From assembly GCF_001458695.1 (NCBI RefSeq), contig NZ_LN885086.1, positions 3,210,001-3,242,000 of the forward strand: a stretch of 32,000 nucleotides of DNA, read 5' to 3'. Both the position numbers and the translations under genes were made by a program. The notes under the pieces were generated by a model. The model searched no databases. It had not been told where the DNA came from and saw only the letters and a list, made by a program, of their open reading frames with translations. Origin of the DNA: Candidatus Nitrospira inopinata (GTDB taxonomy: Bacteria > Nitrospirota > Nitrospiria > Nitrospirales > Nitrospiraceae). This document shows positions 974 to 32,000 of the stretch, one piece after another (within the stretch, counting starts at the first letter, position 1; each line of letters starts with the position of its first letter).

Positions 974-1164
974 CCTCCTGGGACCGGACCGTCAAACTCT
1001 GGGAAGGGGGCTCTGGGAAGGGGGCGCCAAACAAGACAAGTAACGATGCTCCTCACGGCAACAGGTTGCCAAAATTAGAATCGAATAGAATCGGAATGTC
1101 CGCAACTTTCTTGACGACGGCATACCGCCACTTTCCATATGTGCCATCGGCATTGACCGCCGCC
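974..1164. repeat. Direct repeat copy B (~191 bp): orphan WD40 tail remnant + spacer + authentic 3' end of res
   Basis: Homologous to 81-257. It carries a perfect 14-bp tandem duplication, ctctgggaaggggg at 997-1010 and 1011-1024. The duplication frameshifts the WD40-tail remnant (974-1043), which has no upstream coding continuation. Confidence 0.9.
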
Positions 1165-4100
1165 ACCCATCGCTCGGCCGCCGCGCGTTTCACATCTTCC
1201 AGCGGATCATACCCTTTCGTCTCCAAAATCAGATAGGTCGGCGGTTCGGTCTTTAAGCGAACAACAAAGTCCGGCACATAGTCGTGCATTTGGCCATTGT
1301 GCAGATAAGGAATGGCGAAGCCAAGGCCTGCATTTTTGACGAAGGCCTCGACCGCGTCATGTCGATCCAGATAATAGGCAGCGGACTGCTCCCATTGTTT
1401 CGTGTCTGCGACGACATAGTTGAGGTGGGACTTGCTGACCTCCCGCACCTCGCGGCTGGTCCAAAAATCTACGTCCGCCGTTGAACCTGGTCCGCGGGTC
1501 GCTTCATAACGAGGCACTTCCGGCGCTTCTCCTTGTGACGTGTCAGGCCGAATCGCCTCCAGCAATCGCTCGACCACCCAGCCATAGTAGGGTGCAAGAA
1601 AGAGATCCTTCTTGTCAGCGGGCGGACGGGCCTCTACTTTCTTGTCGAGGTACGATTCAATAATGCCGGCGAGCTGCGGAAACAGTCTGTGAGTTGGAAT
1701 CGTGCATCGCTTCTGGGCAACATACTCCCGCGCAAGCGTTCTCCCAAGATCGAACACCAATTCCTGCATCCGCCGCTTCTCGCGAAACTCCTTGAGCGTG
1801 ACCTCGTCGATACGGCCGGGACCGGAAAGTGACAGCCGCCCCTTGTTGTTCACGTGCAGCCCCTTCACCTCGACCTCTGGCGGGATGCGGCCCGGTTCCA
1901 ACACCAGCGGAGGCACGGTCGCCCAATCGACCGTCACCTTGTTACGAATCGCCTGGGTGTAGCCCTCGACGCGAGGAAACTTAATCTCAAATTGTGCCTT
2001 GGCTGGGATCGCATGGACATGGTATCGCTTGACGCGAGGTTGCGGCTGTCCCTGGGGATTCGCTTTGAACGGGATCACTTCAAAAGGCACGCCGAACACC
2101 TTCGCCACTTCCTCGGTGAGCTTGCCATCAGGACCGACGTCGTAACTGGCCCGCCGCAAGCCTCGGCCCACCACCTGCTCGCAGAGCAACTGCGACATGA
2201 AGGGCCGAAGCCCGATGATGTGCGTCACGGTATTGCAATCCCATCCCTCCGTAAGCATCCCCACGCTGACGACGCAGCGCACATCCCGGCCTGGCGGATG
2301 ATCAGGGCGCCCCAGTTTATCGGCCAGTTCTTTGAACCCTTCTGGATAGATGGGCCGGCCCATCCGATCCGTCGGCCAAGCGGTCTTCCCCACGGTATCC
2401 AGCGTGAAGCGCATCCAGCGGACTTCGTCACTCTTGGCCTCCCCGGAATCCGACTCATGCACCACCTTGGAATCGACTCGGATCGTGTGCTGACGATCGG
2501 TGTTTCTGAACCCCTCAATCTTCGCCGGCGGAATGCCGGTCGGCGCCTTGGCTTCCGCCAGCCACTCGTACAGCACCTTGGCGATCTGCGTGTTCTTGCA
2601 CACCAGGATGAAGACCGGCGGCCGAGGATCGTCGCGATCCCTCATCCAGTCCTCACGTTCTCTTTCCCATAGTGCACCCAACATCGCGATGGGATGGTGG
2701 GCGTACTTCAAGATCGCCTCGGGTTTGGGATTGGCTTTCTTTCCTCCCCGTTCAGCCGGCGTGAGGTGGGGCAGAATCCAGTGCCAGATGTTGAAGTAGC
2801 CGGGAATCTCCTTACCGGTGGTGTCTCGGACTGCGAGCTGGGGAATCTTCACCAAGCCGGATTCGATCGCGTCGATCAAGCCGAAGTCGCTCACCACCCA
2901 GGGAAACGGCCGGTTCGTATCCTGGCCGACCCGCCCGAGAAAATAGGGTGTGGCGGAGAGATCAAGGCAGACGTTGATGCCGCGCAGTTTGTGAATCCGA
3001 TCCAGGCCGTCGATCCAGACCGTGGCTTCCTTGAAAAAGTCTTCGGCCTCCTCGTCCTCGCCGAAGAGATCGTCCTCTTCCTCGCTCGTTTCCGCCCGGA
3101 CAATGCGATAGGCATGGTGGGCTTCGTCGTTCATCACCAGAATGTTCTGCTTGCCGCCCACCTCGCGGCCCAGAATCCGGTTCACCAGCGCCGTGTCGCT
3201 CTCGACATAGCGGCGTGATTCCACCGTGACCTTCTTCAGCGTGCCATCTTTGTCTCGCTGCTCCTCAAGCACCGTCAGCAGTCCCGCCGCCACCTGACGC
3301 TCGAAATCATCCAGGGTCAGATAGCGTGTGCCGCGTGCCGTCGTCGTCTTCGAGCTGATCGTAATGGTTTCCTTCGTGCGCACTTCGACTCCGGCTTTAT
3401 TCACCCGTGCGCCCACTCCCCCGGTCTGAATCGATTGGGGCTCGAAGACATGCCAATTGGTGACGAGGACCCGCCCTTGCGTAAGCAACGGCATCAGATG
3501 AGACGGCACGAGATCGCGTGTCCGGTAGAGACTGGCTTCACCCGCTTCCGGGTCCAGTTCCCGGAGACGGTTCTTGATCGTCACGTTCGGGCAGACGATC
3601 AGCACCACATCGGAGAAACGGGCGTCGCTTCGGTCGTTGACCTTGTTGAGAATGCTCCAGGCGGCCAACATCCCCATCACCGTGGTTTTGCCGGTGCCCG
3701 TCGCCATCTTGCAGGCATAGCGTCGAAAGCCGGTGAAGCCGTGCTTGCGCTTCTCCTCGCTCACCTCTTCCTGCGGGATCTCGAACCCTTGCCGGTAGTC
3801 GGCCCTCGCCTCCGTGAGGAAAATAATCGTCTCCGCCGCGTCGAGCTGCGCGAAGAACAGCCGCTGGGCCCGCCCCTCGCGCCGCCACCAGTGCAGCAAC
3901 TCCAGCGTCGTTCTGGTCACGCCGGGATAGCCCTCCTGTCGCCACTTCTTGACCTGCGCACGGATGCGATTGACGAGCGTCAACTCAATGGCGGTGCCGA
4001 CCACGCGCCCGGCTTCCGTCTCCGGCTTGGCCTTGGGATCGCGATAGAAATACATCGCCGGCCGGCGGCCAGGTCGCCGTGTCGGCTCTTCGCCCTCCAC

Positions 4101-4172
4101 GATGTGCCAATATTCTGAAGGTTCGTCGAACGGGGAATTGAGAATGGGCTCTGGAACTTCGTAGCCGCTCAT
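1053..4172 (-). CDS. res: Type III restriction endonuclease, Res subunit (SF2 helicase + C-terminal PD-(D/E)xK nuclease)
   Basis: The likely start is ATG 4172 (MSGYEVPEPILNSPFDEP...), 10 nt after the upstream PIN gene stop. The ORF-track start at 4247 would overlap that gene. Motifs present: Walker A ATGTGKT, motif II MNDEAHH, and VPDFVV...LILETKG (PD...ExK) near the C-terminus. Confidence 0.93.
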   Translation of the reverse strand: MSGYEVPEPILNSPFDEPSEYWHIVEGEEPTRRPGRRPAMYFYRDPKAKPETEAGRVVGTAIELTLVNRIRAQVKKWRQEGYPGVTRTTLELLHWWRREGRAQRLFFAQLDAAETIIFLTEARADYRQGFEIPQEEVSEEKRKHGFTGFRRYACKMATGTGKTTVMGMLAAWSILNKVNDRSDARFSDVVLIVCPNVTIKNRLRELDPEAGEASLYRTRDLVPSHLMPLLTQGRVLVTNWHVFEPQSIQTGGVGARVNKAGVEVRTKETITISSKTTTARGTRYLTLDDFERQVAAGLLTVLEEQRDKDGTLKKVTVESRRYVESDTALVNRILGREVGGKQNILVMNDEAHHAYRIVRAETSEEEDDLFGEDEEAEDFFKEATVWIDGLDRIHKLRGINVCLDLSATPYFLGRVGQDTNRPFPWVVSDFGLIDAIESGLVKIPQLAVRDTTGKEIPGYFNIWHWILPHLTPAERGGKKANPKPEAILKYAHHPIAMLGALWEREREDWMRDRDDPRPPVFILVCKNTQIAKVLYEWLAEAKAPTGIPPAKIEGFRNTDRQHTIRVDSKVVHESDSGEAKSDEVRWMRFTLDTVGKTAWPTDRMGRPIYPEGFKELADKLGRPDHPPGRDVRCVVSVGMLTEGWDCNTVTHIIGLRPFMSQLLCEQVVGRGLRRASYDVGPDGKLTEEVAKVFGVPFEVIPFKANPQGQPQPRVKRYHVHAIPAKAQFEIKFPRVEGYTQAIRNKVTVDWATVPPLVLEPGRIPPEVEVKGLHVNNKGRLSLSGPGRIDEVTLKEFREKRRMQELVFDLGRTLAREYVAQKRCTIPTHRLFPQLAGIIESYLDKKVEARPPADKKDLFLAPYYGWVVERLLEAIRPDTSQGEAPEVPRYEATRGPGSTADVDFWTSREVREVSKSHLNYVVADTKQWEQSAAYYLDRHDAVEAFVKNAGLGFAIPYLHNGQMHDYVPDFVVRLKTEPPTYLILETKGYDPLEDVKRAAAERWVAAVNADGTYGKWRYAVVKKVADIPILFDSNFGNLLP

Positions 4173-4182
4173 TGAGTGTCGG

Positions 4183-4584
4183 TCAAGTTTGCAAGACAGC
4201 CTGAGGGGTTTTCCGTCCCCGTGCCGTCCGGTCGAAGTCGGCATCAAAGCGCACGATGACGAGGTTATATTTGTCGGCAGTCACATATTGATAGGCGTCG
4301 TCGAAATCGAGTCCGAACTGTTTCGAGCGCCGAGCAACATCCGCCAGATCGGCTGGGGCCAGTCGTAACAACGTCAGGCCACCGGTAAAAAGCAAGTCCT
4401 CGACGGCTCGTAGGAAGACATCGTGCAGGTTTCGTCGGATCGGCAGGATACCCAGCGAATAGAGCGAAAACTCCGTGAGAAAGAGCTGCTCAGAAGGAGC
4501 ACGTTCAAGAAATCGTTTCACTTCTTCCGATTTGGCTTGTCGGAGCAAGACTTCCAGGACGAGGTTAGTGTCCACGAGATACAT
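4183..4584 (-). CDS. vapC: PIN-domain toxin (VapC-like)
   Basis: Start ATG 4584 (MYLVDTNLVLEVL...). The conserved acidic PIN residues are present (D in LVDTN, E in TEFSL, D in DDAYQ, D in FDADFD). It overlaps the upstream antitoxin ORF by 20 nt. The N-terminal extension in the ORF track is judged non-coding. Confidence 0.85.
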   Translation of the reverse strand: MYLVDTNLVLEVLLRQAKSEEVKRFLERAPSEQLFLTEFSLYSLGILPIRRNLHDVFLRAVEDLLFTGGLTLLRLAPADLADVARRSKQFGLDFDDAYQYVTADKYNLVIVRFDADFDRTARGRKTPQAVLQT

Positions 4585-4789
4585 CGTCACCCCACCATTC
4601 GAGGATCTTATGCTGCAGTTCAACGGAAGAGTGCTGATCCCGCAAGTCAGCAAGCGCCCCCTCCCAAGCAAACTTCATTTTGCCTCTGGGATGGGGAACA
4701 CGCCGATCAATCAAGAACTTGACAAAATCCTCCACTTCACGCCGGAGATCAGGGGGCAAGTCTTTGATCCGGTCCTCGAGAGATGGCAT
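4565..4789 (-). CDS. DUF2281-type antitoxin partner of the PIN toxin
   Basis: MPSLEDRIKDLPPDLRREVEDFVKFLIDRR... followed by ...SVELQHKILEWW matches the DUF2281 pattern I know from PIN-associated antitoxins. A strong RBS (GAGGAGGA) lies 8 nt upstream of ATG 4789. Confidence 0.8.
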   Translation of the reverse strand: MPSLEDRIKDLPPDLRREVEDFVKFLIDRRVPHPRGKMKFAWEGALADLRDQHSSVELQHKILEWWGDDVSRGH

Positions 4790-4830
4790 AGCGTAGATCC
4801 TCCTCTTTGGTATCGATCAAATCCATCTTA

Positions 4831-7503
4831 TTACGTCAGCTTCTTCACCACCAGCAATTCGTTGCCCCGGTCGTCGATGACCTTGACGGCGATCTGCCGA
4901 TGCTCGCCCGCCGCGAACGGCGCGCTGGTCGTGCCGGACAAGTGATCCCAGACGCTTTCTTCATATTCGCCCTTGAGCGCCTTCTTCAGATTGTCCCAGG
5001 CGCTCGTGCGGGGGAAGAACGCCTGACAGACGTGGAAACAGAGGTCGTTGTAATCAGTATCGAGAAACCAGGCCGGCACATCGTGACCCCATCGGTGATC
5101 GACCTCCATCGTGACGGGATCGAACACGTCCAGCCCGAGCAGCTCGACCTGATACAACACCTCCCCATTTTTACCTTTTTCCTTTTGCCTTTTGACTTGG
5201 ACTTCCGGCTGCCCGCACACGCTGAAGATCTGGCTGGATCGCATGTTCTTGAGCAAATCACCCATCATCAAGTCCGGCGTGGCCTGGACATAGGTGGCTG
5301 GAATGCCAAACACCTCCTCGCAATGCTCGACCGTCTCCCGCGCTTTAGCCTCGATTGCGAACCCGATGACGTACAGATGCGTGTAGCTCTTGCCGTAGGC
5401 TTCCCGTGCGGCGGATTCCACCAGCTTCGTGCTGACCGCCCCGTTCTCCGGACCGAACACAAATGCGACTGGCCTCTCCTGTCCATTGGCAACAAGGGCT
5501 TCTGCCGAGAGTGAGAGGGTCTTGGCTGGAGGCCGGATGTTTTTGAACGTGACCGTCTTGTTGCCTTCCAATCGAAGGACCGGACTCTTGCGAAGGACTT
5601 CGAGCATCCGATCGACGAATGAGCCGTAGGATTCTGCCGAACCCGCACCGGAATACTCGGCACCATCCCCTTCCCAATCCACCGGCGTAGGAATCGTCGC
5701 CTCGACGCAGAAGGGACCGGTCACGCGGGTGATGCCGTTTTCAACCTCCGGCCGGTCCACCAGCACTTCTTCCTTGGGCGGCTCGTTGTTGGCGATGGAC
5801 TTGAGCGTGATATGCGGAACGATCCCGCCGACCTCCTCGCCCTTCTTGTTCTGCTTGCGTTGATAGACGAAGCCACCGGCCGGACCGCGAGATGGGTCTT
5901 TCAACTCATACCAGGGGAACGTCGCGGTGAGGAGCCGCTGCCGAGCCAAGGCCAGCGGCACCCGGCTCGTGTCGATCGTGATCCAGCGGCGTCCCCATTG
6001 CTCGGCGACATAGGCCGTCGTGCCGCTCCCGCACGTCGGATCGAGCACCAGATCGCCGGGATCGGTGGTCATGAGGAGACAGCGCTCGATAACCTTGGTC
6101 GGGGTTTGCACTGAATATATTTTTGAATCGCTTCTACTCTGTATCCCCGAGAGGTCATCCCACACGTTCGTAATTCGATATAAAGGGAAATCATCGAAGT
6201 AGCGAACATACGCTAGACGGTTGCCCTCTTTTCGAATTCGCTTCATCTCTATGAGTCGCTTAAACCCCTCCTCACTTGGCTTCCAGTAACCTGGCTCAGG
6301 ACGATAGTTCTTTCCCTCATAAACCACTGAATATCGCCCTCCCGGCCGCTGGGAAGTAACCGTATCCAACCGGAAAACTCTCGCGTTAGCCGGAATAGGT
6401 TCACCTTTGGTTTCATACTCCGTGATAGGAACTACGTGCCCACCTTCAAGTTCCACAGAACGGTATTTTGTGCCTCCAGCACCGCCAAGTTCTTTAGGAG
6501 TAAAGAGTGGCCTGAACTTCAATGATTCACTCTCTCTCGCATACCACAACAGATAATCACAAATACCGGCCACTCGATTAGTTTTCTCACTTGTTGTCGT
6601 AGTGAAAGCAACTTGGCTCAGGAAGTTTTCCGCTCCAAACACCTCATCCATCACTTCCCGCACATGGTGCAGGTTCTCATCGCTGATCTGGACGAAGATG
6701 CTCCCGCTGGGGGTGAGCAGCTCGCGGGCGAGCAAAAGCCGGTCGCGTAGATAGGTCAGATACGAATGCAGACCCAGTTCCCAGGTATCGCGATAAGCCT
6801 GGACCATCTCGGGCTCGCGGGTCATGTCCTCGTCGTCGTTGTGGGAGACATCGCGCTTCCTCACGAAGGGCTGGAAGTTGCTGCCGAACTTCACGCCGTA
6901 GGGCGGGTCCATGTAGATCATCTGCACCTGGCCGCCCAAGCCTTCGTAGTGCAAGAGCGAGTTCATCACGACCAGCGAATCGCCCAGAATCATCCGGTTC
7001 GTCCAGTTGTCCTGGTACTCGTAGGCTTTGAGCACCTGATCGGTGATGGAATGTTGCGGGTCGCCGAACAGGTCATACATCGTCTGTTGCTGGTCTCGCT
7101 TGTGCTCATCCAACGTTTCGATAATGGCTTTGGTGGAGAGCCGCTCATGGATAAAGAGCGGCAAGGTCGGCACATCGAACGACAGCCGCTCGGCCTTGCC
7201 CGCCCAATTCAAGAACGGCTTGCTGAGGCTTTTGAGTTTGGACGCGGCGGCCTTGGCTTCTTCGAGCGTCTGAGCCTCAAGGATCTGCCGGATGAGGGCT
7301 TCCCCCTGCTCCCGGGCAGGGTTTTTCCCGTCCCAATCGAGCGCCGGCGAGAGTGACGAATCGTACCGGTAGGTCTTGGGCGGTTTCTGTTTCTTAAACT
7401 GCGCTTGCGTGCCGACCTCCGGCCGCATGAGGCTCTTGGCCTCGGGATGTTGATACGGCTCGGGTCGATTGGACTTCGCCGCAAGTTTGGATTTCTTCGC
7501 CAT
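4831..7503 (-). CDS. mod: Type III R-M DNA methyltransferase, Mod subunit (beta-class N6A/N4C MTase)
   Basis: Motif IV is IYMDPPYG (coded about 6895-6909). It precedes motif I, VLDPTCGSGTTAYVA (coded about 6016-6042). The gene is 890 aa and lies upstream of and co-directional with res. Confidence 0.93.
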   Translation of the reverse strand: MAKKSKLAAKSNRPEPYQHPEAKSLMRPEVGTQAQFKKQKPPKTYRYDSSLSPALDWDGKNPAREQGEALIRQILEAQTLEEAKAAASKLKSLSKPFLNWAGKAERLSFDVPTLPLFIHERLSTKAIIETLDEHKRDQQQTMYDLFGDPQHSITDQVLKAYEYQDNWTNRMILGDSLVVMNSLLHYEGLGGQVQMIYMDPPYGVKFGSNFQPFVRKRDVSHNDDEDMTREPEMVQAYRDTWELGLHSYLTYLRDRLLLARELLTPSGSIFVQISDENLHHVREVMDEVFGAENFLSQVAFTTTTSEKTNRVAGICDYLLWYARESESLKFRPLFTPKELGGAGGTKYRSVELEGGHVVPITEYETKGEPIPANARVFRLDTVTSQRPGGRYSVVYEGKNYRPEPGYWKPSEEGFKRLIEMKRIRKEGNRLAYVRYFDDFPLYRITNVWDDLSGIQSRSDSKIYSVQTPTKVIERCLLMTTDPGDLVLDPTCGSGTTAYVAEQWGRRWITIDTSRVPLALARQRLLTATFPWYELKDPSRGPAGGFVYQRKQNKKGEEVGGIVPHITLKSIANNEPPKEEVLVDRPEVENGITRVTGPFCVEATIPTPVDWEGDGAEYSGAGSAESYGSFVDRMLEVLRKSPVLRLEGNKTVTFKNIRPPAKTLSLSAEALVANGQERPVAFVFGPENGAVSTKLVESAAREAYGKSYTHLYVIGFAIEAKARETVEHCEEVFGIPATYVQATPDLMMGDLLKNMRSSQIFSVCGQPEVQVKRQKEKGKNGEVLYQVELLGLDVFDPVTMEVDHRWGHDVPAWFLDTDYNDLCFHVCQAFFPRTSAWDNLKKALKGEYEESVWDHLSGTTSAPFAAGEHRQIAVKVIDDRGNELLVVKKLT

Positions 7504-7651
7504 ACGCTTACCAGGCGGAATATCAAAACCAAATTGCGCCGCAGGATACCCTTTTACTCAGTAGAAATCACTCACGTCGAATCCTTTTAGGGCGGGTGCG
7601 GCTGAAATCGTGTTGCCGCAAGACTTCCCTGTCTCGCTCCACCTGTCAACG

Positions 7652-8071
7652 TCACGGCACATCCTCAACCCACAGCAACCGGACGACTCTGGCGTGATCC
7701 TTCAGTGCATTGAAGAGTTTTCGATCGGCGGTCACCAAGGCGCAGGATTGGCTTGAGGCCAGCGCGACGTACAGCGCATCATAGATGCTCAGATCGTGTC
7801 GCGCGGCAATCTGCCATGCAGCCGCCAACAAACCGACGGCAGCGGCCGTTTTCAGCGGCGCGCGCCGGAATTGAGTCACTGCATCATCGACCGATTCCCG
7901 CGACATTTCTTTTCGGCGCCATCGCTTCAAAAAAGCGTTCGCGACTTCCGCATAGATCAATTCGGGAGCCAACAGATCATAGCGGTCGGTCAGCAATCGG
8001 CGGGCCGCATCGGCATGAATTTCGTCCGCAAACCATTTGACCGCGATACTGGCATCAAGAACGATCTTCAC
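7652..8071 (-). CDS. vapC: PIN-domain toxin (VapC), second copy, unrelated in sequence to 4183-4584
   Basis: The protein begins (V)KIVLDASIAVKWF and contains ...YAEV...DALYVALA...LVTADRKL. The GTG start at 8071 overlaps the upstream stop as GTGA. Confidence 0.85.
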   Translation of the reverse strand: MKIVLDASIAVKWFADEIHADAARRLLTDRYDLLAPELIYAEVANAFLKRWRRKEMSRESVDDAVTQFRRAPLKTAAAVGLLAAAWQIAARHDLSIYDALYVALASSQSCALVTADRKLFNALKDHARVVRLLWVEDVP

Positions 8072-8304
8072 CGGCTGTCTCGATCCTCACGGATCAAGTC
8101 GGAGCTGTCGCTGAAGCGACGACCTTTCAAACGCTTACGGATGCGCGCCGCCTCGTCCCTAAATTCAGCCATGGTCATCTGTTCGGCGGCTTGTTCCAAA
8201 ATGACTTTGACTTCGCCTTGTAACGACCTCCGGTTGTCCTTCGCCTTTTTCTTCAGGCGCCCGATGAGTTTCGGGTCGAGATCCCGCACCAATAATTGAG
8301 CCAT
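8068..8304 (-). CDS. vapB: Ribbon-helix-helix type antitoxin (VapB/FitA-like)
   Basis: Start ATG 8304 (MAQLLVRDLDPKLIGRLKKKAKDNRRSLQGEVKVILEQA) is preceded by GGAGGAAGG. The LxVRxLD...L...A..N.RS...E motif is typical of Arc/MetJ-type antitoxins. The longer ORF-track version (to 8472) lacks coding character. Confidence 0.75.
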   Translation of the reverse strand: MAQLLVRDLDPKLIGRLKKKAKDNRRSLQGEVKVILEQAAEQMTMAEFRDEAARIRKRLKGRRFSDSSDLIREDRDSR

Positions 8305-8323
8305 GCCTTCCTCCGTTTGATCA

Positions 8324-8341
8324 GCAACGATAGCACGTTGC
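8324..8341. promoter_or_regulatory. Palindrome gcaacg-atagca-cgttgc upstream of vapB: candidate operator
   Basis: Perfect 6-bp arms with a 6-bp spacer, 20-37 nt upstream of the vapB start codon. Confidence 0.3.
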
Positions 8342-8490
8342 AAGCAAAATGCTAGCAGGCCGACGGAAGGGAAGCAACCGTCAATTCGACAAGCCCACGT
8401 ACCATTGTCGCTTGATCGCCTTGATGTCCGCTTCGATCGCTTCCAGTTATCTCGGCGGATGATCCGCGTCATGCAAGGACGCGCAGCCCA

Positions 8491-9222
8491 TCAATTCGGC
8501 GCGATTTCATAGACCAGCGTCACGCTTGCCTCGACCTGGATCTCGCCCGGCGAGACGGGCGCCGTGCCACCGTCCACCTCCATCGCCGCCATGGTCCGAG
8601 CCAGACGGGGCATCGGCTGCACCAGACGGCCCTCTTCGTTGACAGAGATGATCCGCGCGAGCCTCACCCCCAACGTCTCGCTCAACGCCTGGGCTTTGTT
8701 GCGGGCCGAGGCCGCCGCCTGTTTCAACGCCTCCACCTGGGCGAGCCGTTCGTCCACCAGCCCCCACTGTAACCCATGAAACTGATTGACGCCGGCCGCC
8801 AGGACTCCTTCGATCACCGCTCCCATCTGCTCCGGCTTGCGGACGTCCACCGTGACCGTGTTGCCGACCACGTATCCGATGATCTCCGGAGGTAACGGCG
8901 TCGCGCCGCTGGAACGTGGGGGCGACGGCCTATATTGCGGCGTGATGGTGAAGGACGAGGTTTGAATGTGCTCCGGCGCGATATCGAGCGACCGGAGCCG
9001 TTCCATCACCTTGGCCATCACGGCGTGGTTGCGCCGTTGCGCGTCGGCGAGCGAGCGCCCGGCGGTTTCCATGCCGAACGTGGCGATGACATGGTCCGGC
9101 GGGCATACAACGCGGCCGGTCGCCGAGACCGTGATCGTTGACGTTTCCGGCCCCGCGCCGTCACGCGCATGGGCCACGGCCGGCCACACCACCACCAACA
9201 GCATCCACAAAGCCACCGTCAT
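8491..9222 (-). CDS. SIMPL/DUF541 family secreted protein
   Basis: Signal peptide MTVALWMLLVVVWPAVAHA, then ITVSATGRV..PPD....F......G....A.......V...L......I.T..F...P.Y pattern, and a C-terminal ...NKAQALSETLGVRLARIISVNE. The start at 9222 is preferred (GGAGGA 6 nt upstream). ATG 9240 is an alternative. Confidence 0.85.
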   Translation of the reverse strand: MTVALWMLLVVVWPAVAHARDGAGPETSTITVSATGRVVCPPDHVIATFGMETAGRSLADAQRRNHAVMAKVMERLRSLDIAPEHIQTSSFTITPQYRPSPPRSSGATPLPPEIIGYVVGNTVTVDVRKPEQMGAVIEGVLAAGVNQFHGLQWGLVDERLAQVEALKQAAASARNKAQALSETLGVRLARIISVNEEGRLVQPMPRLARTMAAMEVDGGTAPVSPGEIQVEASVTLVYEIAPN

Positions 9223-9374
9223 CGGGGTTCCTCCTTTCATCGGCGATCCTTTCTTCCCCGGCCTCTTTTTTTGACGGACCGACCGGCAAAATGGAAAGGG
9301 AGACTTCCCTCTTGCCCTCTTGACGAAATCGCGCGACTGAGGCATTGTCCGGCAGCACGCCGAGGAGCAGATCC

Positions 9375-9932
9375 ATGGCCATGACGTCCATTGTGCTTCC
9401 GCTGGGGACGCCGGCTCCGCCGTTCGAGCTGCGCGACGTGGTGAGCGGCAAGGTCTATACGCTCGAATCCTTCGCCGACAAAGTCGCCTTGCTCGTCATG
9501 TTCATCTGTCGCCACTGCCCCTACGTCGTTCATGTACGGCAGGAACTGGCTAAGCTCGGCGCCGAGTATCGGGACACTGCCCTGGGCATCATCGCCATCA
9601 GCAGCAACGACCCCGTCACCTACCCGGACGACGCGCCGCCCAAGTTGAAAGAAATGGCCGAGCAGCTCGGTTTTTCCTTTCCCTTCTGCTTCGACGAAAC
9701 CCAGGAGGTCGCCAAGGCCTACCGCGCCGTCTGCACGCCGGAACTTTTCCTTTTTGATCGCAACCGGCGGCTGGTGTATCACGGGCAATTGGACGACAGT
9801 CGCCCCGGCAACACCAAGCCGGTCACCGGCCGCGATTTACGCGCGGCGATCGATGCAGTCCTTGCCGGCAGACCCGTCAACCAGGTCCAGCACCCCAGCA
9901 TGGGATGCAGCATCAAGTGGAAACAAGGGTGA
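9375..9932 (+). CDS. Thioredoxin-fold thiol-disulfide oxidoreductase (redoxin/AhpC-TSA-like)
   Basis: CxxC centre in MFICRHCPYV, then AISSND.....DD....M pattern and a conserved C-terminal GCSIKW. ATG 9375 lies 8 nt after GAGGAG. Confidence 0.85.
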   Translation: MAMTSIVLPLGTPAPPFELRDVVSGKVYTLESFADKVALLVMFICRHCPYVVHVRQELAKLGAEYRDTALGIIAISSNDPVTYPDDAPPKLKEMAEQLGFSFPFCFDETQEVAKAYRAVCTPELFLFDRNRRLVYHGQLDDSRPGNTKPVTGRDLRAAIDAVLAGRPVNQVQHPSMGCSIKWKQG

Positions 9933-10050
9933 CCCCTCCTTCACGACGGGACCCGCGCCTTCCCTTTCACGCCTGAACAGTGGCGGCGACCGTTGAAATT
10001 CCTCTGAAATTTCCGGCACAGGCCGATCCGACCCTCTCATCCCCATCTTC

Positions 10051-10059
10051 TGTGGATAA
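10051..10059 (-). promoter_or_regulatory. Perfect DnaA box (TTATCCACA, reverse orientation)
   Basis: tgtggataa is read directly. With two flanking bases it forms an 11-nt exact inverted repeat (10049-10059) with 10279-10289. Confidence 0.6.
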
Positions 10060-10062
10060 CCT

Positions 10063-10071
10063 TGTGGGTAA
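10063..10071 (-). promoter_or_regulatory. DnaA-box-like 9-mer, 1 mismatch (TTACCCACA)
   Basis: tgtgggtaa lies 3 nt from the perfect box. Confidence 0.4.
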
Positions 10072-10225
10072 GCGCCGGATCAAAACCTGAATCGCTCGAA
10101 TTCTGCTGTCATCCCTGCAAGATGCCTATTTTTTAGGCATCCGCTTACCAAGCCAGAAACCACTATATCTTGTGGCTCTACGGGGAATCGTAAATTTTTT
10201 TGTACATTCCTAGAAAAATAGGCTT

Positions 10226-10304
10226 GACATTTTTCTGGCTCGGACCGAACGAACGCCGCCGCTTTGATTGAAACGTTTTTATCCACAGACTGGACATTTT
10301 TCTG
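10226..10304 (+). repeat. Two exact copies of the 12-mer gacatttttctg (10226-10237 and 10293-10304)
   Basis: Read directly. The copies are 67 bp apart, inside the AT-rich core of the spacer (10189-10237 is about 27% GC by hand count). Confidence 0.8.
10279..10287 (+). promoter_or_regulatory. Perfect DnaA box (TTATCCACA)
   Basis: ttatccaca is read directly. Confidence 0.6.
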
Positions 10305-10311
10305 TGGATGG
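10303..10311 (-). promoter_or_regulatory. DnaA-box-like 9-mer, 2 mismatches (CCATCCACA)
   Basis: tgtggatgg. It shares the extended core tctgtggat with the box at 10049-10059. Confidence 0.3.
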
Positions 10312-10447
10312 TCGTCCCTGTTCTTATGGCCCTAGTCGGGCGTTTCTCATTGTCGCTTAAAGGAGGGAAGTTCGGATTGACCGGGGTCGGGGGACGATTT
10401 CCGAAAGCTCCATCCATTGCTGGAACACCCCTCTCATCCCGGTGGGG

Positions 10448-10624
10448 TCATTTTTTCCGGTACACGTTCAGCCCGACCTTCTCTTGGCGATTTGGAACGG
10501 CCACGTTGCCTTCCGTGGAGGCGATGATGATCGTTTTACCCGAAGCCGAAGGGCCGAACTCCTTGGAGAGATCCACCTTGATCGTCAGGATGGTTCCCTC
10601 CACCGTCATTTCAACGTTCTTCAT
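10448..10624 (-). CDS. Small conserved-looking hypothetical protein, 58 aa (below the ORF-track cutoff)
   Basis: ATG 10624 is preceded by AAAGGAG with a 7-nt spacer, and TGA is at 10450-10448. Hand translation: MKNVEMTVEGTILTIKVDLSKEFGPSASGKTIIIASTEGNVAVPNRQEKVGLNVYRKK. The composition is protein-like with beta-strand periodicity. It is co-directional with the upstream gene. Confidence 0.6.
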   Translation of the reverse strand: MKNVEMTVEGTILTIKVDLSKEFGPSASGKTIIIASTEGNVAVPNRQEKVGLNVYRKK

Positions 10625-10685
10625 GGCCGGCTCCTTTCATAAGCGCGCCTCATAACCACACCGGGGCTCGTTCCCCATCAACACC

Positions 10686-11093
10686 TCAATACCCCCTTCC
10701 CGTGCTGCCGCCGCGCCCCATCCGATCCAGCGGGAGCGCCTCGTATCGTTGTTTCAAGTCAGGATGCGCATCGAGAAACTCCTTCACCGCCGCCTCATCG
10801 GCGAAAATCTCTCTGCTGCGCTCCCGATACTCTTGGACGGTCATGCCGTGCTTCGACAGCAACGCGCCGAGCTTGGCGCTGATGTCCTCGCCCATGGCCC
10901 TCATCTGCTCTGGCGACGGCCGTTGCCCCTCGCCGAACCGTTCGCCGCCCTGAAAATAATTCATCATCATCTCGCCGATCTCGATTCGCGCCTTGACGAA
11001 TTTTTCGACCTCCGCCGGCTCCGCCGCGACACAGAGTGAAGCAACCACTGCCAGGCTCAACGAAACCCCGATCATCCAACGCGCTTTCTTCAT
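10686..11093 (-). CDS. Secreted helical hypothetical protein (possibly DUF4168-like)
   Basis: Start ATG 11093 (MKKARWMIGVSLSLAVVASLCVAAEP is a signal peptide). The family call rests on memory of a pattern only. Confidence 0.7.
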   Translation of the reverse strand: MKKARWMIGVSLSLAVVASLCVAAEPAEVEKFVKARIEIGEMMMNYFQGGERFGEGQRPSPEQMRAMGEDISAKLGALLSKHGMTVQEYRERSREIFADEAAVKEFLDAHPDLKQRYEALPLDRMGRGGSTGRGY

Positions 11094-11198
11094 GGCTCTT
11101 ATCCTTTCATCAATATCGGTCATCAATACCGGTCCATGGTTCCCTGACTTCCGACCAATCCGCGCCTTCAATTCATACATTTCCCCAGCCGACCCGAT

Positions 11199-11819
11199 CT
11201 ATTCCACCGATCGCCCTTCCAAAAACACGGCCTGTTCCAGCGCGCGGAAAAACCGTTGATAGGGCGCCGGATCCTCGACGGCCCGCAGGTAGAACTGCGC
11301 GCCGGCGCGGACCACCAGTTGCGACGCATTCCGCTCGCGGACGGTGACGGTCAATCGCACGAGATTGTTCCGGTGATAAAACGGTCCCCAGGTTCTGGCG
11401 TTGCGGTTGAGCACGAGCAACGTGTCGGGGCGATACAACAGGTAACCGAGATCGACGCCGTAGATGCGCTCGTTCTCGACGTATTTTTTCCCCGAGACGA
11501 TGCCCAGCTCTTCATCCAGGACTTCCACCATGAAGTCCAAGTCCTGCATGGTGGCGATGATCGCCGCCAGCATCCGTTGCCGGTCCGTGGTGTCGAAGAC
11601 CCGCGATTGCGCGGCCCTGATCTTGACCTGACTGTCGTCCGAAAGCCAAATTTGGGCGCGGGCGTCCCACTGGTTGTCATGCCGCAGTTCGTACGGAGTC
11701 GGGCACCCCTGCAAGAGCAGGCAGAACACGACGCCGGAGACCGCGCCAAGCCATCCGAAAAGCCCCTTTTTGAAAACCCTTTTTCCGGCGAACGGCGAGT
11801 CGTTATGCCAGGAGTCCAT
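11199..11819 (-). CDS. Lipoprotein, paralog 1 of an uncharacterised three-member family
   Basis: Lipobox LLQGC. It shares with the next two genes the motifs Q(S/T)R.F(D/E)..D, LQDL(D/G)F.(I/V)E......G and a C-terminal DP..YQ.FF..L. ATG 11819 (GGAG 5 nt upstream) is preferred over GTG 11825. Confidence 0.75.
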   Translation of the reverse strand: MDSWHNDSPFAGKRVFKKGLFGWLGAVSGVVFCLLLQGCPTPYELRHDNQWDARAQIWLSDDSQVKIRAAQSRVFDTTDRQRMLAAIIATMQDLDFMVEVLDEELGIVSGKKYVENERIYGVDLGYLLYRPDTLLVLNRNARTWGPFYHRNNLVRLTVTVRERNASQLVVRAGAQFYLRAVEDPAPYQRFFRALEQAVFLEGRSVE

Positions 11820-11838
11820 CGTCACTCCATCGGCTGGA

Positions 11839-12285
11839 TCATTCCTTGATGATGAACAGTGACCGTTCGAGCGTCGCGAAGAAATTCTGATAGACCTTGG
11901 GATCTTCGATCGGCTTGTTGTTATAGATGGCGTTGGCCCTGATCATCATTTTGCCTTCGGCTTCCGGGCGCACGGTGACCGTGACCCCCACGACGTCGTA
12001 GAAATTCGGCTCGGCGAAACGGGCCGCCGTCACCAACCCCAACGACTCATTGGCCCGCTCGATGATGAACCCCAGGTCTTGCAGAGCGGCGATCACGCCC
12101 CGCATGGCGACTTGCCGATCCGCCACGTCGAAGGACCGGGATTGCACGCTCCGAATTTTCATCTGCGCCTCGGTCGGCGCGAGCAAATCCTGAGTGGGTT
12201 GCGGCGCGGCGCAGCCCTGCGCGATGACAAGCGCGGCGACGAGCAAGCTCCCCTCGATCACTCCCCGGACAATTCGCTGCTTCAT
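11839..12285 (-). CDS. Lipoprotein, paralog 2
   Basis: MKQRIV..., lipobox IAQGC, then SVQSRSFDVADRQVAMRGVIAALQDLGFIIE......GLV and EDPKVYQNFFATLERSLF. Confidence 0.75.
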   Translation of the reverse strand: MKQRIVRGVIEGSLLVAALVIAQGCAAPQPTQDLLAPTEAQMKIRSVQSRSFDVADRQVAMRGVIAALQDLGFIIERANESLGLVTAARFAEPNFYDVVGVTVTVRPEAEGKMMIRANAIYNNKPIEDPKVYQNFFATLERSLFIIKE

Positions 12286-12298
12286 CACGACCTCACCA

Positions 12299-12898
12299 TT
12301 AAAGGGCAAAGGGCTCCAGAAAGACGGCTTTCGACAATTTGGCGAAAAACGTCTGGTAAAGGACAGGGTCCCGCACCATTTCCATCCGTTGCTCTCCCGG
12401 CGGAATCGGCTGCTGGCCGGCCGAGCCGTCCCCTTTCCAGATGACCCGGTAAAACATGACCCGAACTTCGTGGCGGGTCCTCTCCGGATTCAACGGCCTC
12501 GTAATCAACGTCGCGGCGATTTTTTGATGGAGATCGACGGGAATGACGATCGGAGGTTGCTGCACCAACACCAGCGCGGAGCTGAACAGAAAAATAAAAA
12601 AGCGGCTGATGTCCTGGCCGTGCTCCCGCGCGCTCCGTTCCTTCGTCGCCCGCAGAAACCCCACCTCCCGCGCGCTTTCCTCGATTTGGAATCCCAGGTC
12701 TTGCAACACGGCCGCCGAGGCGGACAGGAGTTCCGTCTCGTCTTTGGTCTCGAAGAGACGGGTCTGCATGGCCCTGTGGGCAGGGCTCTCCGCAGTCAAT
12801 TGAAAGAATTCGGCGGGTTGCGTCTGAGGGACGCAACCCATCAGGTGGCCGGCCAGGACCGCCCCCCCGACCATTGTTTCCCATCGCCCCTTCGTCAT
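12299..12898 (-). CDS. Lipoprotein, paralog 3 (with an internal insertion)
   Basis: Lipobox LMGC, then MQTRLFETKDETELLSASAAVLQDLGFQIE......GFL and RDPVLYQTFFAKLSKAVF. Confidence 0.75.
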   Translation of the reverse strand: MTKGRWETMVGGAVLAGHLMGCVPQTQPAEFFQLTAESPAHRAMQTRLFETKDETELLSASAAVLQDLGFQIEESAREVGFLRATKERSAREHGQDISRFFIFLFSSALVLVQQPPIVIPVDLHQKIAATLITRPLNPERTRHEVRVMFYRVIWKGDGSAGQQPIPPGEQRMEMVRDPVLYQTFFAKLSKAVFLEPFAL

Positions 12899-12910
12899 GA
12901 GCCGGTCCGC

Positions 12911-13300
12911 CTAGAACTGCGTATAATTGTAGGCGAAGTCGCGCACCTTTTTGTCTTCGTCATATTTGATGATGATGGTGAGGGTCCGCTGCCGCTGGGA
13001 GCTGGAGCTGTCGCGCGCGCTGGTTCCGAGAATAATGAGGCCCGCGAAGGACGACCTGGCCGTGTCAACCCGGTCGGTGGAAACCTTGTCGTAGATCCAC
13101 ACCTCCCGGCGCTTCTCATCGGTCGTCACGATGTTGGGGCTTCCCAGCAATTCCGCGACTTGCGAAGCCGGCATGCCGACCTTGATCTCCCCCTGCACTT
13201 TGCCGACGGTCAACCGGTCTTCTTTGATCTCCGCCGTACCGCCCCCGCAGCCGGCCGCCATCGCCACACACACACCCAGCGCCACCCATAGCCTTTTCAT
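12911..13300 (-). CDS. BamE/SmpA-OmlA-like small lipoprotein
   Basis: Lipobox MAAGC. IKVGMPASQVAELLGSPN...EVWIYD...RTLTIIIKYDEDKKV resembles the BamE fold signature (..GMT..QV...LG.P......W.Y). RBS GGAGGG lies 7 nt upstream of ATG 13300. Confidence 0.65.
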   Translation of the reverse strand: MKRLWVALGVCVAMAAGCGGGTAEIKEDRLTVGKVQGEIKVGMPASQVAELLGSPNIVTTDEKRREVWIYDKVSTDRVDTARSSFAGLIILGTSARDSSSSQRQRTLTIIIKYDEDKKVRDFAYNYTQF

Positions 13301-27708: not shown

Positions 27709-27747
27709 AGCGTTCCTCTTCCTTAAATGAACAAGTCGGAAATACGA

Positions 27748-28785
27748 TCAATCCCAGGTTCGTGGATAGTACCCGGTATGCCAATATTCGAACAGAATGA
27801 CCTTCCACATTTCATCGACCGTCAAGTGCTGCTCCCAAGGCGGCATGACGGATGCCCATGGGAACCCCTCATTGGGAAGACCCATTCCACCTTTTGCGAC
27901 GCGCCAGAAAATAAATGTTTCTTGTAACTGAGCAATTGTTCCCGGATCAGTGAAATTCGCGGGGATGGGATTGAAGGCAAAAGCATGAAGGCCACGGCCG
28001 TTCAAATTGTCTCCATGACAGAAGTGACAATTTTGGAAAAAGATTTCTCCGCCTTCGCGGACATACTTTAAGTAACCTTCAGCCTTTTCGTCCCACGGAT
28101 TGGCATTCGGCTTCATGAGCCGACCCATGCCCTGCTCAACAATGAGCGAATTGCTATATTCTTGATCGTATTTGCCCTCAGGATTCACGCGATATGGGTT
28201 CAAAGAGGTTTGCAACACATACGTCTTACCGTGCACTTTGGTACTGGCAGGCGGAGCGGGATGCACGGTCCTCAATTCAATCGGTTCTTCCGATTTCGGC
28301 ATCATGACATTGTAAGAAAAGCCCCACGTCAGAATCGGGAGCGCGACCAGATAAACGTATCGGAGCACTTTATTGAACCCGGTCTGAGCATCCAAGACAT
28401 TCAAGATGGGTTGCTTGAACTTTTTCCAATCTTCTTCATTTGCGGAAACCCACATGAGAACGGCGACGAGCCCTACCGTTCCATACATGGCTCGAACGCT
28501 AAATGGAATGGGGGGATAGACCCTGTACTTGATGTAGAGAAGGAAGAAAATCCAAAATCCGATCCCTTGCCAGAATCTTGGAATTCCCATTCCCATCGCA
28601 TTGAGCATGTAGCTCAAACCAGTAAAGCCAAGAACATAGCACCCGACTTCGAAGAGCATCTGCATTGGCATGTACCCTTCGACAAGACGAATGGTATTCG
28701 AAGGAATAACATCGAATATCATTCCAGCCAGCAGTAGTAAACCGACAACCCCCACCAAGGCGCCGATCGACATCAGTGCTTTCAT
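27748..28785 (-). CDS. Polytopic membrane protein (about 5 TM) with a C-terminal mono-haem cytochrome c domain
   Basis: Hydrophobic N-terminal half, then GGEIFFQNCHFCHG...ASVMPPWEQHLTVDEMWKVILFEYW (class I cytochrome c pattern). RBS GGGAG upstream of ATG 28785. Confidence 0.8.
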   Translation of the reverse strand: MKALMSIGALVGVVGLLLLAGMIFDVIPSNTIRLVEGYMPMQMLFEVGCYVLGFTGLSYMLNAMGMGIPRFWQGIGFWIFFLLYIKYRVYPPIPFSVRAMYGTVGLVAVLMWVSANEEDWKKFKQPILNVLDAQTGFNKVLRYVYLVALPILTWGFSYNVMMPKSEEPIELRTVHPAPPASTKVHGKTYVLQTSLNPYRVNPEGKYDQEYSNSLIVEQGMGRLMKPNANPWDEKAEGYLKYVREGGEIFFQNCHFCHGDNLNGRGLHAFAFNPIPANFTDPGTIAQLQETFIFWRVAKGGMGLPNEGFPWASVMPPWEQHLTVDEMWKVILFEYWHTGYYPRTWD

Positions 28786-28835
28786 TGCTTACTCCCTTTA
28801 CGCTCTCGAACGGAAATATGAATCTTCCTTGCAGC

Positions 28836-30146: not shown

Positions 30147-30232
30147 GGTACTAACCCTCCTACCGCTTCACAAGAAAAAGAACGGCGACGCTGTCCTTCC
30201 TCTCACAAAGCCGATCCTTAGATAAAAGTCCA

Positions 30233-31954: not shown

Positions 31955-32000
31955 AATGCCTTCGGTCTTGTAGTAGACATCTCTCGCCTTTTCAACTTTT

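Follow-up and report, generated by a model that had tools for sequence, protein, structure and literature searches.

A candidate DARS-type DnaA-binding element, distinct from the replication origin, conserved throughout the genus Nitrospira

A non-coding element conserved throughout the genus Nitrospira carries at its left end three DnaA boxes arranged as in the core of the Escherichia coli DARS sites, and we favour, with modest confidence, its interpretation as a chromosomal non-origin DnaA-binding control element of DARS type. The element was analysed in a 32-kb stretch of a Nitrospira chromosome (the window, hereafter), where it lies in the spacer between a redoxin gene and the gene for a 58-aa protein, which are convergent as stated in the initial annotation of this DNA. 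The general idea put forward there, a DnaA-box cluster that takes part in replication control and is nobody's promoter region, is supported by the analysis, and of the options then considered a site of datA or DARS type fits best, specifically DARS, as the three boxes on the left match the layout of its core. The features of the locus are as follows, numbered along the window:

9375-9932, plus strand: left flanking gene, coding for a thioredoxin-fold redoxin of the AhpC/TSA family (context, outside the element)
10037-10311, plus strand: core of the conserved non-coding element, oriented with the DARS-like core at its left end
10037-10045, plus strand: box I-like site TCATCCCCA, with two mismatches to TTATCCACA, opposite to box II across the 5-bp gap TCTTC (10046-10050)
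10051-10059, minus strand: box II-like site (box A), a perfect TTATCCACA inside the extended 11-mer CTGTGGATAAC
10063-10071, minus strand: box III-like site TTACCCACA, with one mismatch, oriented as box II; on the plus strand, the 3-bp gap CCT is followed by TGTGGGTAA
10121-10141, no strand assigned: palindrome GATGCCTA-TTTTT-TAGGCATC, with the conserved core GCCTA-W5-TAGGC at 10124-10138
10160-10175, no strand assigned: dyad CCAC-N8-GTGG, conserved across loci
10189-10237, no strand assigned: AT-rich stretch (28.6% GC) with the conserved blocks CATTCCTAGAAAAA (10205-10218) and GCTTGACAT (10222-10230)
10220-10304, plus strand: 'iteron-like' direct repeat AGGCTTGACATTTTTCTG / AGACTGGACATTTTTCTG
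10279-10287, plus strand: box C, the other perfect DnaA box, in inverted orientation to box II at a distance of 228 bp
10303-10311, minus strand: box D, a weak DnaA-like box CCATCCACA with two mismatches, facing box C across 15 bp
10448-10624, minus strand: right flanking gene, coding for the 58-aa protein, the last gene of a minus-strand operon (context, outside the element)

The two perfect boxes at 10051-10059 (minus strand) and 10279-10287 (plus strand), the one-mismatch box at 10063-10071 (minus strand) and the two-mismatch box at 10303-10311 (TGTGGATGG) were all found where the initial annotation had placed them, as was the 11-nt inverted repeat TCTGTGGATAA/TTATCCACAGA (10049-10059 and 10279-10289). 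No further perfect box had been noticed in the window, and indeed the first three of these boxes are the sole matches with at most one mismatch in the 32 kb. The proposed excess of boxes over chance held only in part, in that the two perfect boxes are clustered but the number of matches with at most one mismatch (three) is not above that of shuffled sequences. As both perfect boxes form one inverted repeat they are not independent events within a single sequence; they are nevertheless conserved independently across species, and therefore not a product of chance. Outside the element, perfect boxes were found at the chance rate in 1.85 Mb of related loci (11 observed, 8.8 expected).

In a DARS core, boxes I and II are opposite and separated by 5 bp, box II has the full consensus sequence and box III is head to tail with box II (PMC6868365, PMC11724364). 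The left end of the Nitrospira element (10037-10071) reads TCATCCCCA-5 bp-TGTGGATAA-3 bp-TGTGGGTAA and thus contains three boxes (10037-10045, 10051-10059 and 10063-10071), of which the first two are head to head at 5 bp (TCATCCCCA-TCTTC-TGTGGATAA) and the third follows box II head to tail at 3 bp (CCT-TGTGGGTAA). Box II shows the full consensus in the window; among the 17 aligned species loci it does so in 15, and in the other two it is mismatched at position 1 (L030, TGTGGATAG, and L041, TGTGGATAT); the invariant run T49-A59 ends one base short of this position. Across variants, box III is TTnTnCACA-like, for example TTGTTCACA or TTGTGCACA. Box I has two mismatches in the window, but in most Nitrospira variants its first three bases are degenerate and only TCC(C/A)CA is kept, with three to four mismatches to the 9-mer consensus, and therefore the head-to-head partner site is weak. 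The retained part is invariant in A1 at the same distance from box II in all 17 aligned species loci and has a high information content in the 109 variants described below.

The cores of E. coli DARS1 (TTATCCACT-ATTCC-TGTGGATAA-CCA-TGTGTATTA) and DARS2 (TTATCCCAG-CTTTC-TGTGGATAA-CAT-GGTGTAAGA) have the same layout as 10037-10071, and the 11-mer CTGTGGATAAC around box II is identical in both of them and in the Nitrospira element. The retained half of box I differs, being TTATCC in the E. coli DARS and TCC(C/A)CA in Nitrospira. A scan for this layout was run on 110 kb of E. coli sequence that included oriC and datA and on 1.87 Mb of Nitrospira-type loci. In the former it matched DARS1, DARS2 and one more site adjacent to DARS2 and nothing else, and in the latter it gave 104 matches, all of them to this element and none elsewhere. 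The triple-box scan was thus very specific in the sequence tested, and it is applicable to all genomes for the mapping of DARS-like sites.

The same blocks were detected in 19 GTDB Nitrospira species loci by nhmmer and alignment, and after dereplication at 95% no fewer than 109 sequence variants, taken from genomes and metagenomes of Nitrospira, share the conserved core (approximately 10037-10311). In these two sets the box positions are invariant or nearly so, and the intervening DNA varies. Conservation of the spacer in relatives, a check proposed in the initial annotation, was found for its core throughout Nitrospira. In the main clade the conserved region extends from -50 to +400 of the anchor, with an identity equal to or higher than that of the neighbouring coding DNA. 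The 58-aa protein is 100% identical in the locus L011, although the adjoining spacer DNA has about 85% identity there. The 19 species loci, which were located through a neighbouring protein, constitute the unbiased set. Retrieval of the metagenome variants relied on a pattern in which box II, the TGTG of box III and the palindrome were prescribed, and therefore the conservation of these parts in the metagenome set is by construction. Box C was not part of the retrieval pattern.

Across the genus the element is intergenic, single-copy and confined to one chromosomal neighbourhood, although its immediate neighbour genes change. In the window, the redoxin gene has its recorded start at the ATG at 9375, and its translation from a TTG start gave no match in an exact-protein look-up. 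A tie between the element and the operon of p135 and the 58-aa protein was considered and rejected, as the operon is often but not always adjacent, and Nitrospira sp. NS4 carries the p135 homologue on another contig than the element. No conserved open reading frame was found in the element or in its right-hand extension, where indels break the frame between close relatives, and a small gene was rejected because neither start codons nor reading frames are conserved between such relatives.

To the right of the three boxes, the 8-bp-stem palindrome was found as annotated (10121-10128 and 10134-10141). It lies 74-76 nt from the box anchor in all 109 variants, with variable DNA in between; its loop is made only of A and T and flips between TTTTT and AAATA, and the changes in its stem are uncompensated. 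A dimeric protein probably binds there. Its core GCCTA-W5-TAGGC fits the Fis consensus GNNYAWWWWWTRNNC (PMC3302801, PMC11724364), although the protein that it fits may not be one of the host, Fis being reported as restricted to gamma-proteobacteria related to E. coli (PMC4245941); among the loci examined, only NtrC-type C-termini matched Fis. The dyad CCAC-N8-GTGG follows the palindrome at 36-37 nt in 71 of the 109 variants. The AT-rich stretch had been described as embedded in a background of more than 60% GC, and the low value of 28.6% at 10189-10237 was confirmed, but the window has 57.4% GC, below that figure. AT-richness is modestly conserved, with a mean AT of 0.65 compared to about 0.5 in the flanks. 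As to the iteron-like repeat, copies of gacatttttctg do start at 10226 and 10293, 67 bp apart, but in this form they exist only in close relatives of the window, and therefore the 12-nt direct repeat is probably no general functional part.

In 91 of the 109 variants, which were not selected for it, box C was detected with at most two mismatches at +212 to +253. Its substitutions are nearly confined to positions 1 and 5, at which TTATnCACA tolerates change. Box D is moderately conserved as CTG(G/T)GGATG, and a conserved TTGACA is also present in the element.

E. coli DARS2 resembles the Nitrospira element in several respects. Its 5-bp gap is pyrimidine-rich as in Nitrospira (CTTTC and TCTTC, respectively), and its box I is also weak, with three mismatches. 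Both sites are conserved non-coding DNA some hundreds of bp long, with extra DnaA boxes and protein-site-like motifs at fixed distances, and both are intergenic, single-copy and away from the origin. By itself, box I of DARS2 fails to bind ADP-DnaA, and IHF and Fis are required for activation (PMC11724364), so that the combination of a weak box I with motifs resembling accessory sites is a parallel to DARS2. The rigid spacing of core, palindrome and dyad in Nitrospira also recalls that of DARS2, in which the core, IBS and FBS are at an optimised spacing (PMC5742627). In contrast, DARS2 sits between divergent genes, in the rppH/ygdT-mutH intergenic region, whereas the Nitrospira element is between convergent ones, belongs to another phylum (Nitrospirota) and yielded no IHF consensus. 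Its accessory motifs, namely GCCTA-W5-TAGGC at 75 nt, CCAC-N8-GTGG and a second inverted box pair about 230 bp off, are unlike those of DARS2. IHF itself is reported to be present in Nitrospirae, but its consensus was not conserved in the element.

DARS1, located in the bioD-uvrB intergenic region, has the same core layout, and its 17-mer CTGTGGATAACCATGTG is identical in the Nitrospira loci L036 and L057; however, it is 101 bp long, does not need accessory factors and has a good box I with one mismatch, whereas the Nitrospira element is long and its box I is weak. Clusters of DnaA boxes that lie outside the origin and modulate the availability or nucleotide state of the initiator, as proposed here for the Nitrospira element, are also represented by datA and by those of Bacillus subtilis. 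The box arrangement of datA is different and includes a required IHF site, and the DARS-type triple was absent from the datA region scanned.

Based on this comparison, the element would work as follows. DnaA would bind the perfect central box (10051-10059) and recruit two further DnaA molecules, one oppositely oriented on the weak box that lies 5 bp to its left (10037-10045) and one of like orientation on the box that lies 3 bp to its right (10063-10071). ADP would then be released by the head-to-head pair, and inactive ADP-DnaA would be recycled to ATP-DnaA. A system of Hda/RIDA type is what would make such reactivation necessary, and Gln208 and Leu290 are the residues of E. coli DnaA needed for DARS action. 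The rest of the element, that is, the palindrome at 75 ± 1 nt, the CCAC-N8-GTGG dyad, the A/T-rich segment and the second inverted box pair about 230 bp away, may be a regulatory part comparable to the IHF and Fis sites of E. coli DARS2, which would bind accessory proteins, loop the DNA, or both, and in this way turn the core on or off.

DnaA could also bind the element without being reactivated on it, the site acting as a titration sink, in a datA-like hydrolysis of ATP, or as a DnaA-dependent architectural or transcriptional site that, for example, insulates or terminates convergent transcripts; we regard this as unlikely but deserving serious consideration. The presence of two perfect boxes and of two or three weak ones within 275 bp agrees with it, as does the position between convergent genes in the window and in many other loci, and the roles of non-origin clusters in titration and hydrolysis are established in E. 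coli (datA; PMC5742627). However, the arrangement of boxes I, II and III with gaps of 5 and 3 bp is the hallmark of DARS, and the scan of the E. coli regions of datA and oriC did not find it there. An IHF consensus, which datA needs, was not found conserved in the element, and four to five boxes would make a poor sink, titration clusters usually holding more. Moreover, since the neighbouring genes vary, a role tied to a particular transcript is unlikely. A further reading, which we consider decidedly improbable, assigns the blocks to other proteins, such as a Fis-family or NtrC-type regulator with its partners, and makes the element a transcriptional control region or a small-RNA promoter in which the likeness to DnaA boxes is secondary. 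Sites of the NtrC family typically have a 6-N5-6 form, as the palindrome TGCCTA-N5-TAGGCA does, and the window and several other loci encode, at a distance of 1-3 kb, a sigma-54-dependent response regulator whose HTH is of Fis type. TTGACA is conserved, and in other taxa the composite of triple box and palindrome precedes priA or uvrC by about 50 bp and could be a promoter element there. Against this, all 109 variants lack a sigma-54 -24/-12 promoter, and a search for sigma-70-type promoters in 9300-11300 of the window was negative, with no usable -10 after TTGACA. The regulator gene is missing from the flanks in many loci that bear the element, no open reading frame is conserved, and the substitutions in the boxes follow the DnaA consensus.

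The alternative of an unannotated non-coding RNA, mentioned in the initial annotation, was not borne out either. A structured RNA gene, with helices formed by boxes A and C, by boxes 0 and D and by the hairpin, would account for the long and strong non-coding conservation, and the single sequence folds better than its shuffles (z = -3.35 on the plus strand and -4.71 on the minus strand). Nevertheless, Rfam gave no match at the gathering threshold for the whole window or at E values up to 10 for the spacer, and RNAalifold on the 17-species alignment gave zero compensatory pairs and no consensus structure in the right part. The helices lack covariation, 447 of 500 shuffles scoring at least as high; in 12 of 17 sequences the only variable pair is not formed, and the alternatives CCCCA/CCACA and GGGG/GTGG speak against pairing, since CCACA was found with GGGG 12 times and with GTGG only twice. 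In addition, 14 of the 91 box C variants have an uncompensated mid-helix change, and no terminator is conserved, one weak terminator-like site overlapping the stop of the 58-aa gene in the window. No tRNA or tmRNA was found. We therefore consider an RNA gene very unlikely, and regard it as scarcely credible that the element is an origin of replication, whether oriC itself, an additional origin or what is left of the origin of an integrated replicon. As in a bacterial oriC, the DnaA boxes flank an A/T-rich segment and are accompanied by palindromes, but the element is not the replication origin, an option rejected because of the skew, the gene orientation and the missing dnaA. GC skew is negative over the entire 32 kb, and 28 of 31 loci show no change of its sign across the element, the means of the two flanks being equal (-0.034 and -0.034). 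Gene orientation does not change at the spacer either: nearly every gene to its left and right is encoded on the minus strand, secDF, tgt and argS among them. An oriC is usually linked to dnaA, dnaN or other origin-proximal genes, whereas neither dnaA nor dnaN is linked to the element, and no protein with a DnaA signature was found in about 2 Mb of flanks; the same gene direction on both sides and the lack of a nearby dnaA had already been raised as points against oriC, and both stand. Runs of the DnaA-trio are present in only 5 of the 109 variants, neither the trio nor an AT-rich unwinding element is conserved, and AT-richness is weak outside the lineage of the window. The remnant of a replicon is likewise contradicted by the single copy in the same chromosomal context across the genus and by the absence of adjoining rep, par and integrase genes. 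A remnant of a MITE or an IS, with the 11-nt inverted repeat as its ends, was also rejected, as there is one copy per locus, the neighbourhood and the orientation relative to the redoxin gene are the same in the GTDB species loci, and the conserved positions are the boxes and not the ends.

Our literature searches returned nothing relevant on an oriC or a DARS of Nitrospira. These slow-growing and hard-to-manipulate bacteria include nitrite oxidisers and comammox organisms and are important in the nitrogen cycle and in wastewater treatment. In PMC4245941 and PMC5742627, DARS sites are reported from no bacteria other than E. coli and its close relatives among the gamma- and beta-proteobacteria. 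A DARS-core layout kept genus-wide in another phylum provides a concrete short fragment with which to address the generality of DNA-catalysed nucleotide exchange on DnaA. Taken with the comparisons above, this suggests that DARS-like control exists far outside the E. coli group. As a more speculative possibility, to which we lend limited credence, reactivation of DARS type may be an old and widespread module, present in Nitrospirota and in Gammaproteobacteria far from E. coli, that in Nitrospira has grown to a hub of 300-450 bp with a second inverted box pair and is possibly read by a Fis-family (NtrC-type) protein. If so, in these slow-growing nitrifiers such a reader would link the initiation of replication to signals from the environment.

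In line with the favoured reading, the composite of triple box and palindrome was also detected outside Nitrospira, on contigs of which at least one is gammaproteobacterial. It lies there immediately upstream of priA or uvrC, and its box I is a good DnaA box. In E. coli, DARS1 is upstream of uvrB and DARS2 adjoins mutH, compared to the position upstream of priA or uvrC that the composite has elsewhere.

All the features that the initial annotation had described in the spacer at 9933-10447 (boxes, an exact 11-nt inverted repeat, a palindrome, a 12-nt direct repeat with copies 67 bp apart and a low-GC stretch) were found, confirming its observation as a whole. No other match with one mismatch or fewer was detected anywhere in the 32 kb, whose overall GC is 57%. 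The spacer is organised as follows.

9375-9932, plus strand: redoxin gene (thioredoxin fold), left border of the spacer
10051-10059, minus strand: perfect box TTATCCACA (box II or A)
10063-10071, minus strand: box with one mismatch (box III or B)
10121-10141: palindrome with an 8-bp stem
10189-10237: AT-rich stretch, 28.6% GC
10279-10287, plus strand: perfect box TTATCCACA (box C)
10303-10311: box with two mismatches (box D)
10448-10624, minus strand: 58-aa gene, right border of the spacer, closing a minus-strand operon whose small proteins have no known function

DNA 100% identical to the redoxin gene is found in NCBI assembly GCA_041694755.1 as well as in many metagenome assemblies, and among the GTDB species representatives the closest relatives of its product come from Nitrospira MAGs and isolates; the window is part of a Nitrospira chromosome. 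The spacer is surrounded by ordinary chromosomal genes. Those on the left encode a type III restriction-modification system plus two PIN toxin-antitoxin pairs; on the right are a sigma-54 two-component system, secDF, yajC, tgt, argS and cytochrome genes.

The element was searched by BLAST, by a mismatch-tolerant search and with an nhmmer profile, and Nitrospira species loci were fetched through the redoxin gene. The same ~280 bp were recovered in 19 Nitrospira species loci, so the core of the spacer is conserved in related genomes. A pattern scan of metagenome contigs added at least 120 further loci, and dereplication of the whole set at 95% identity left at least 109 variants. In the alignment of the species loci the following blocks were invariant or nearly so, and the intervening DNA varied freely.

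TCC(C/A)CA-yCTT-CTGTGGATAAC-nnn-TGTG
GCCTA-N5-TAGGCAT
CCAC-N8-GTGG
CATTCCTAG
GCTTGACA
TATCCACAG
TTCTG(G/T)GGATG

Non-coding conservation in the largest clade spans positions -50 to +400, counted from the box anchor, with an identity equal to or above that of the adjoining coding sequence. The immediate neighbours vary among loci (redoxin, aldo-keto reductase, the operon of the 58-aa protein and a 135-aa protein, a small secreted protein and others), and no orientation rule holds for them among the loci compared. Therefore, the element is autonomous and serves no particular gene as promoter or terminator. A block TGGCA(C/T)(G/A)AAA, located ~26 nt upstream of the anchor and before box I, was seen in 29 of the 109 variants listed, from many clades (e.g. 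L013 8245-8260); it resembles a sigma-54 -24 element without its -12 GC partner and is not present in the window.

The boxes of the element behave like DnaA boxes. Box C was absent from every search pattern, and a box with two mismatches or fewer was found at +212 to +253 in 91 of the 109 variants listed. Its positions 2, 4, 6, 7, 8 and 9 are essentially invariant, with nearly all changes at positions 1 and 5, the latter being the 'n' of the DnaA-box consensus TTATnCACA (PMC11724364), and box B reads TTnTnCACA in most variants listed. Outside the element, perfect boxes occur in the same loci at the chance rate (11 seen vs. 8.8 expected in 1.85 Mb).

The left box cluster matches exactly the published layout of a DARS core, in which boxes I and II are oppositely oriented and 5 bp apart, box II has the full consensus and box III lies head-to-tail with box II (PMC6868365; PMC11724364).

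Core of the element compared with the two E. coli DARS cores (box I, gap, box II, gap, box III)
Window, 10037-10071: TCATCCCCA, TCTTC, TGTGGATAA, CCT, TGTGGGTAA
E. coli DARS1, bioD-uvrB spacer: TTATCCACT, ATTCC, TGTGGATAA, CCA, TGTGTATTA
E. coli DARS2, rppH-mutH spacer: TTATCCCAG, CTTTC, TGTGGATAA, CAT, GGTGTAAGA

Most Nitrospira variants keep only the 3' half of box I (TCCCCA or TCCACA), with 3-4 mismatches to the 9-mer; box I of DARS2 is likewise weak, with three mismatches, and does not bind ADP-DnaA by itself (PMC11724364). When this layout was scanned with mismatch thresholds loose enough to take in DARS2, the 1.87 Mb of Nitrospira-type loci gave 104 matches, all of them in the element, and 110 kb of E. 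coli K-12 including oriC and datA gave DARS1, DARS2 and one further site only. The latter, TTATTCACC-TTTTC-TGTGGATAG-AGT-TGTGAAGAA, lies in the rppH-mutH spacer 316 bp from the DARS2 core (L212 5136-5170, K-12 NC_000913.3 2,969,135-2,969,169) and may be identical with the 'additional DnaA boxes' known from the 455-bp DARS2.

From this analysis, the best-supported reading, somewhat more probable than not, is that the element is a DnaA-regulatory site of the DARS type, which would be a new variant in a phylum with no DARS described so far. Following its sequence and the E. coli paradigm, DnaA would bind the boxes, a head-to-head DnaA dimer would form and ADP would be released from DnaA, with regulation presumably exerted through the palindrome and the distal boxes. 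The main rival, in which the element binds DnaA for some other purpose (titration, datA-like hydrolysis or an architectural function, for instance), seems rather unlikely. The oriC proposed initially was discarded on the grounds of skew, gene orientation, the missing DnaA gene and the scarcity of DnaA-trios. GC skew is negative in all 1-kb windows of the 32 kb, and of the 31 loci whose two flanks both reach 3 kb or more, 28 have the same sign on either side, with a mean of -0.034 on the left and on the right over the 31. Nearly all genes on both flanks in the window are on the minus strand, no DnaA-signature protein is encoded in ~2 Mb of loci carrying the element or its neighbourhood, and DnaA-trio runs were found in 5 of the 109 variants listed. 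The AT-richness of the element is modest outside the lineage of the window.

The alternative of an ncRNA was rejected too. The window sequence of the element folds better than shuffles, a trivial result due to its inverted repeats. Rfam gave no match, RNAalifold detected no compensatory pair and, in the right-hand part, no structure at all, and an explicit test of three possible helices revealed no covariation, with 447 of 500 shuffles scoring as high as the real alignment or higher. The sole variable pair in these helices was unpaired in 12 of 17 species, and the left CCACA was accompanied by a right GGGG 12 times and by the complementary GTGG twice, which argues against RNA pairing. Fourteen of the 91 box C variants (of those listed) carry a G or A midway along the supposed long-range helix, facing an unchanged box A. 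A coding region was also rejected, as indels break the reading frames between close relatives.

The remainder of the element looks, from its sequence, like a regulatory region. The palindrome GCCTA-W5-TAGGC, itself part of the metagenome search pattern, is 74-76 nt away from the anchor throughout the 109 variants listed, separated by ~55 unconserved nt, and is followed 36-37 nt further on by a CCAC-N8-GTGG dyad in 71 of them. The palindrome conforms to the Fis consensus GNNYAWWWWWTRNNC (PMC3302801), which occurs elsewhere in the 1.87 Mb only 16 times; Fis is said to be restricted to E. coli relatives (PMC4245941). E. coli DARS2 requires binding of both IHF and Fis, each at an optimised distance from the core (PMC5742627; PMC11724364), and IHF has been reported in Nitrospirae (PMC10325909). 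A Fis query matched in the comparison loci only the C-termini of NtrC-type regulators; the window encodes one such regulator 3 kb away from the element. Neither a conserved IHF consensus nor a sigma-54 promoter was found in the element among the variants listed.

The metagenome pattern also drew contigs of very different GC (46-69%) without box C, in which box I is a good DnaA box (1-2 mismatches). In six of them, non-Nitrospira contigs, the triple-box core lies ~50 bp upstream of a gene for DNA replication or repair, with the GCCTA-W5-TAGGC palindrome ~75 nt away:

upstream of priA: L161 ~7010-7112 (PriA gammaproteobacterial), L203 ~3980-4090 and L164
upstream of uvrC: L120 ~1720-1813, L209 ~8080-8171 and L207 ~2340-2434

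As E. coli DARS1 and DARS2 likewise adjoin DNA-repair genes (uvrB and mutH), this proximity suggests that triple box plus palindrome recur together as a module, with the Nitrospira element as one member of a broader class. The priA/uvrC sites could belong to a DARS-like or DnaA/Fis-controlled family, located beside replication/repair genes, that has gone unrecognised. A further pattern match (L098 8751-8850) lies near a RepB/ParB-type plasmid partition gene (Pfam RepB; genes at 9169-12625) and may be a plasmid or chromid origin region rather than a member of the chromosomal family.

Some other observations were made in the window. An exact 12-nt direct repeat, CCCTCTCATCCC (10032-10043 and 10429-10440, 397 bp apart), brackets the element, its left copy overlapping box I and its right copy immediately preceding the stop of the 58-aa gene; it is only partly retained in the closest relatives (L011 and L012) and may be due to chance or be a trace of a past rearrangement. 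The small-protein operon (10686-13300, minus strand; 129, 199, 148, 206, 135 and 58 aa) sits downstream of a gene pair for a sigma-54 response regulator and a histidine kinase and matches no Pfam family, except for a weak BamE-like match of the 129-aa protein. Its 206-aa and 148-aa proteins share ~29-30% identity, and the 135-aa protein has ~1600 homologues, the organism-named ones among the 120 listed being all from Nitrospira and all hypothetical.

At the left end, a 159-bp direct repeat (104-262 and 1011-1169, 93.7% identical, ~900 bp apart) adjoins the type III restriction (ResIII) gene at its 3' end. The region 1053-8472 resembles a defence island, with a type III restriction helicase, a PIN/DUF2281 pair, an N6/N4 DNA methylase and a PIN/FitA toxin-antitoxin pair; related restriction and methylase genes, with 76-89% identity, are found at this same site in other Nitrospira species (L039 and L057). 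Finally, GC falls from ~60% to 48-52% at 26000-32000, where a multi-haem/cytochrome c cluster, a protein with an ethylbenzene-dehydrogenase-like domain and a cytochrome bd-like oxidase subunit are encoded.
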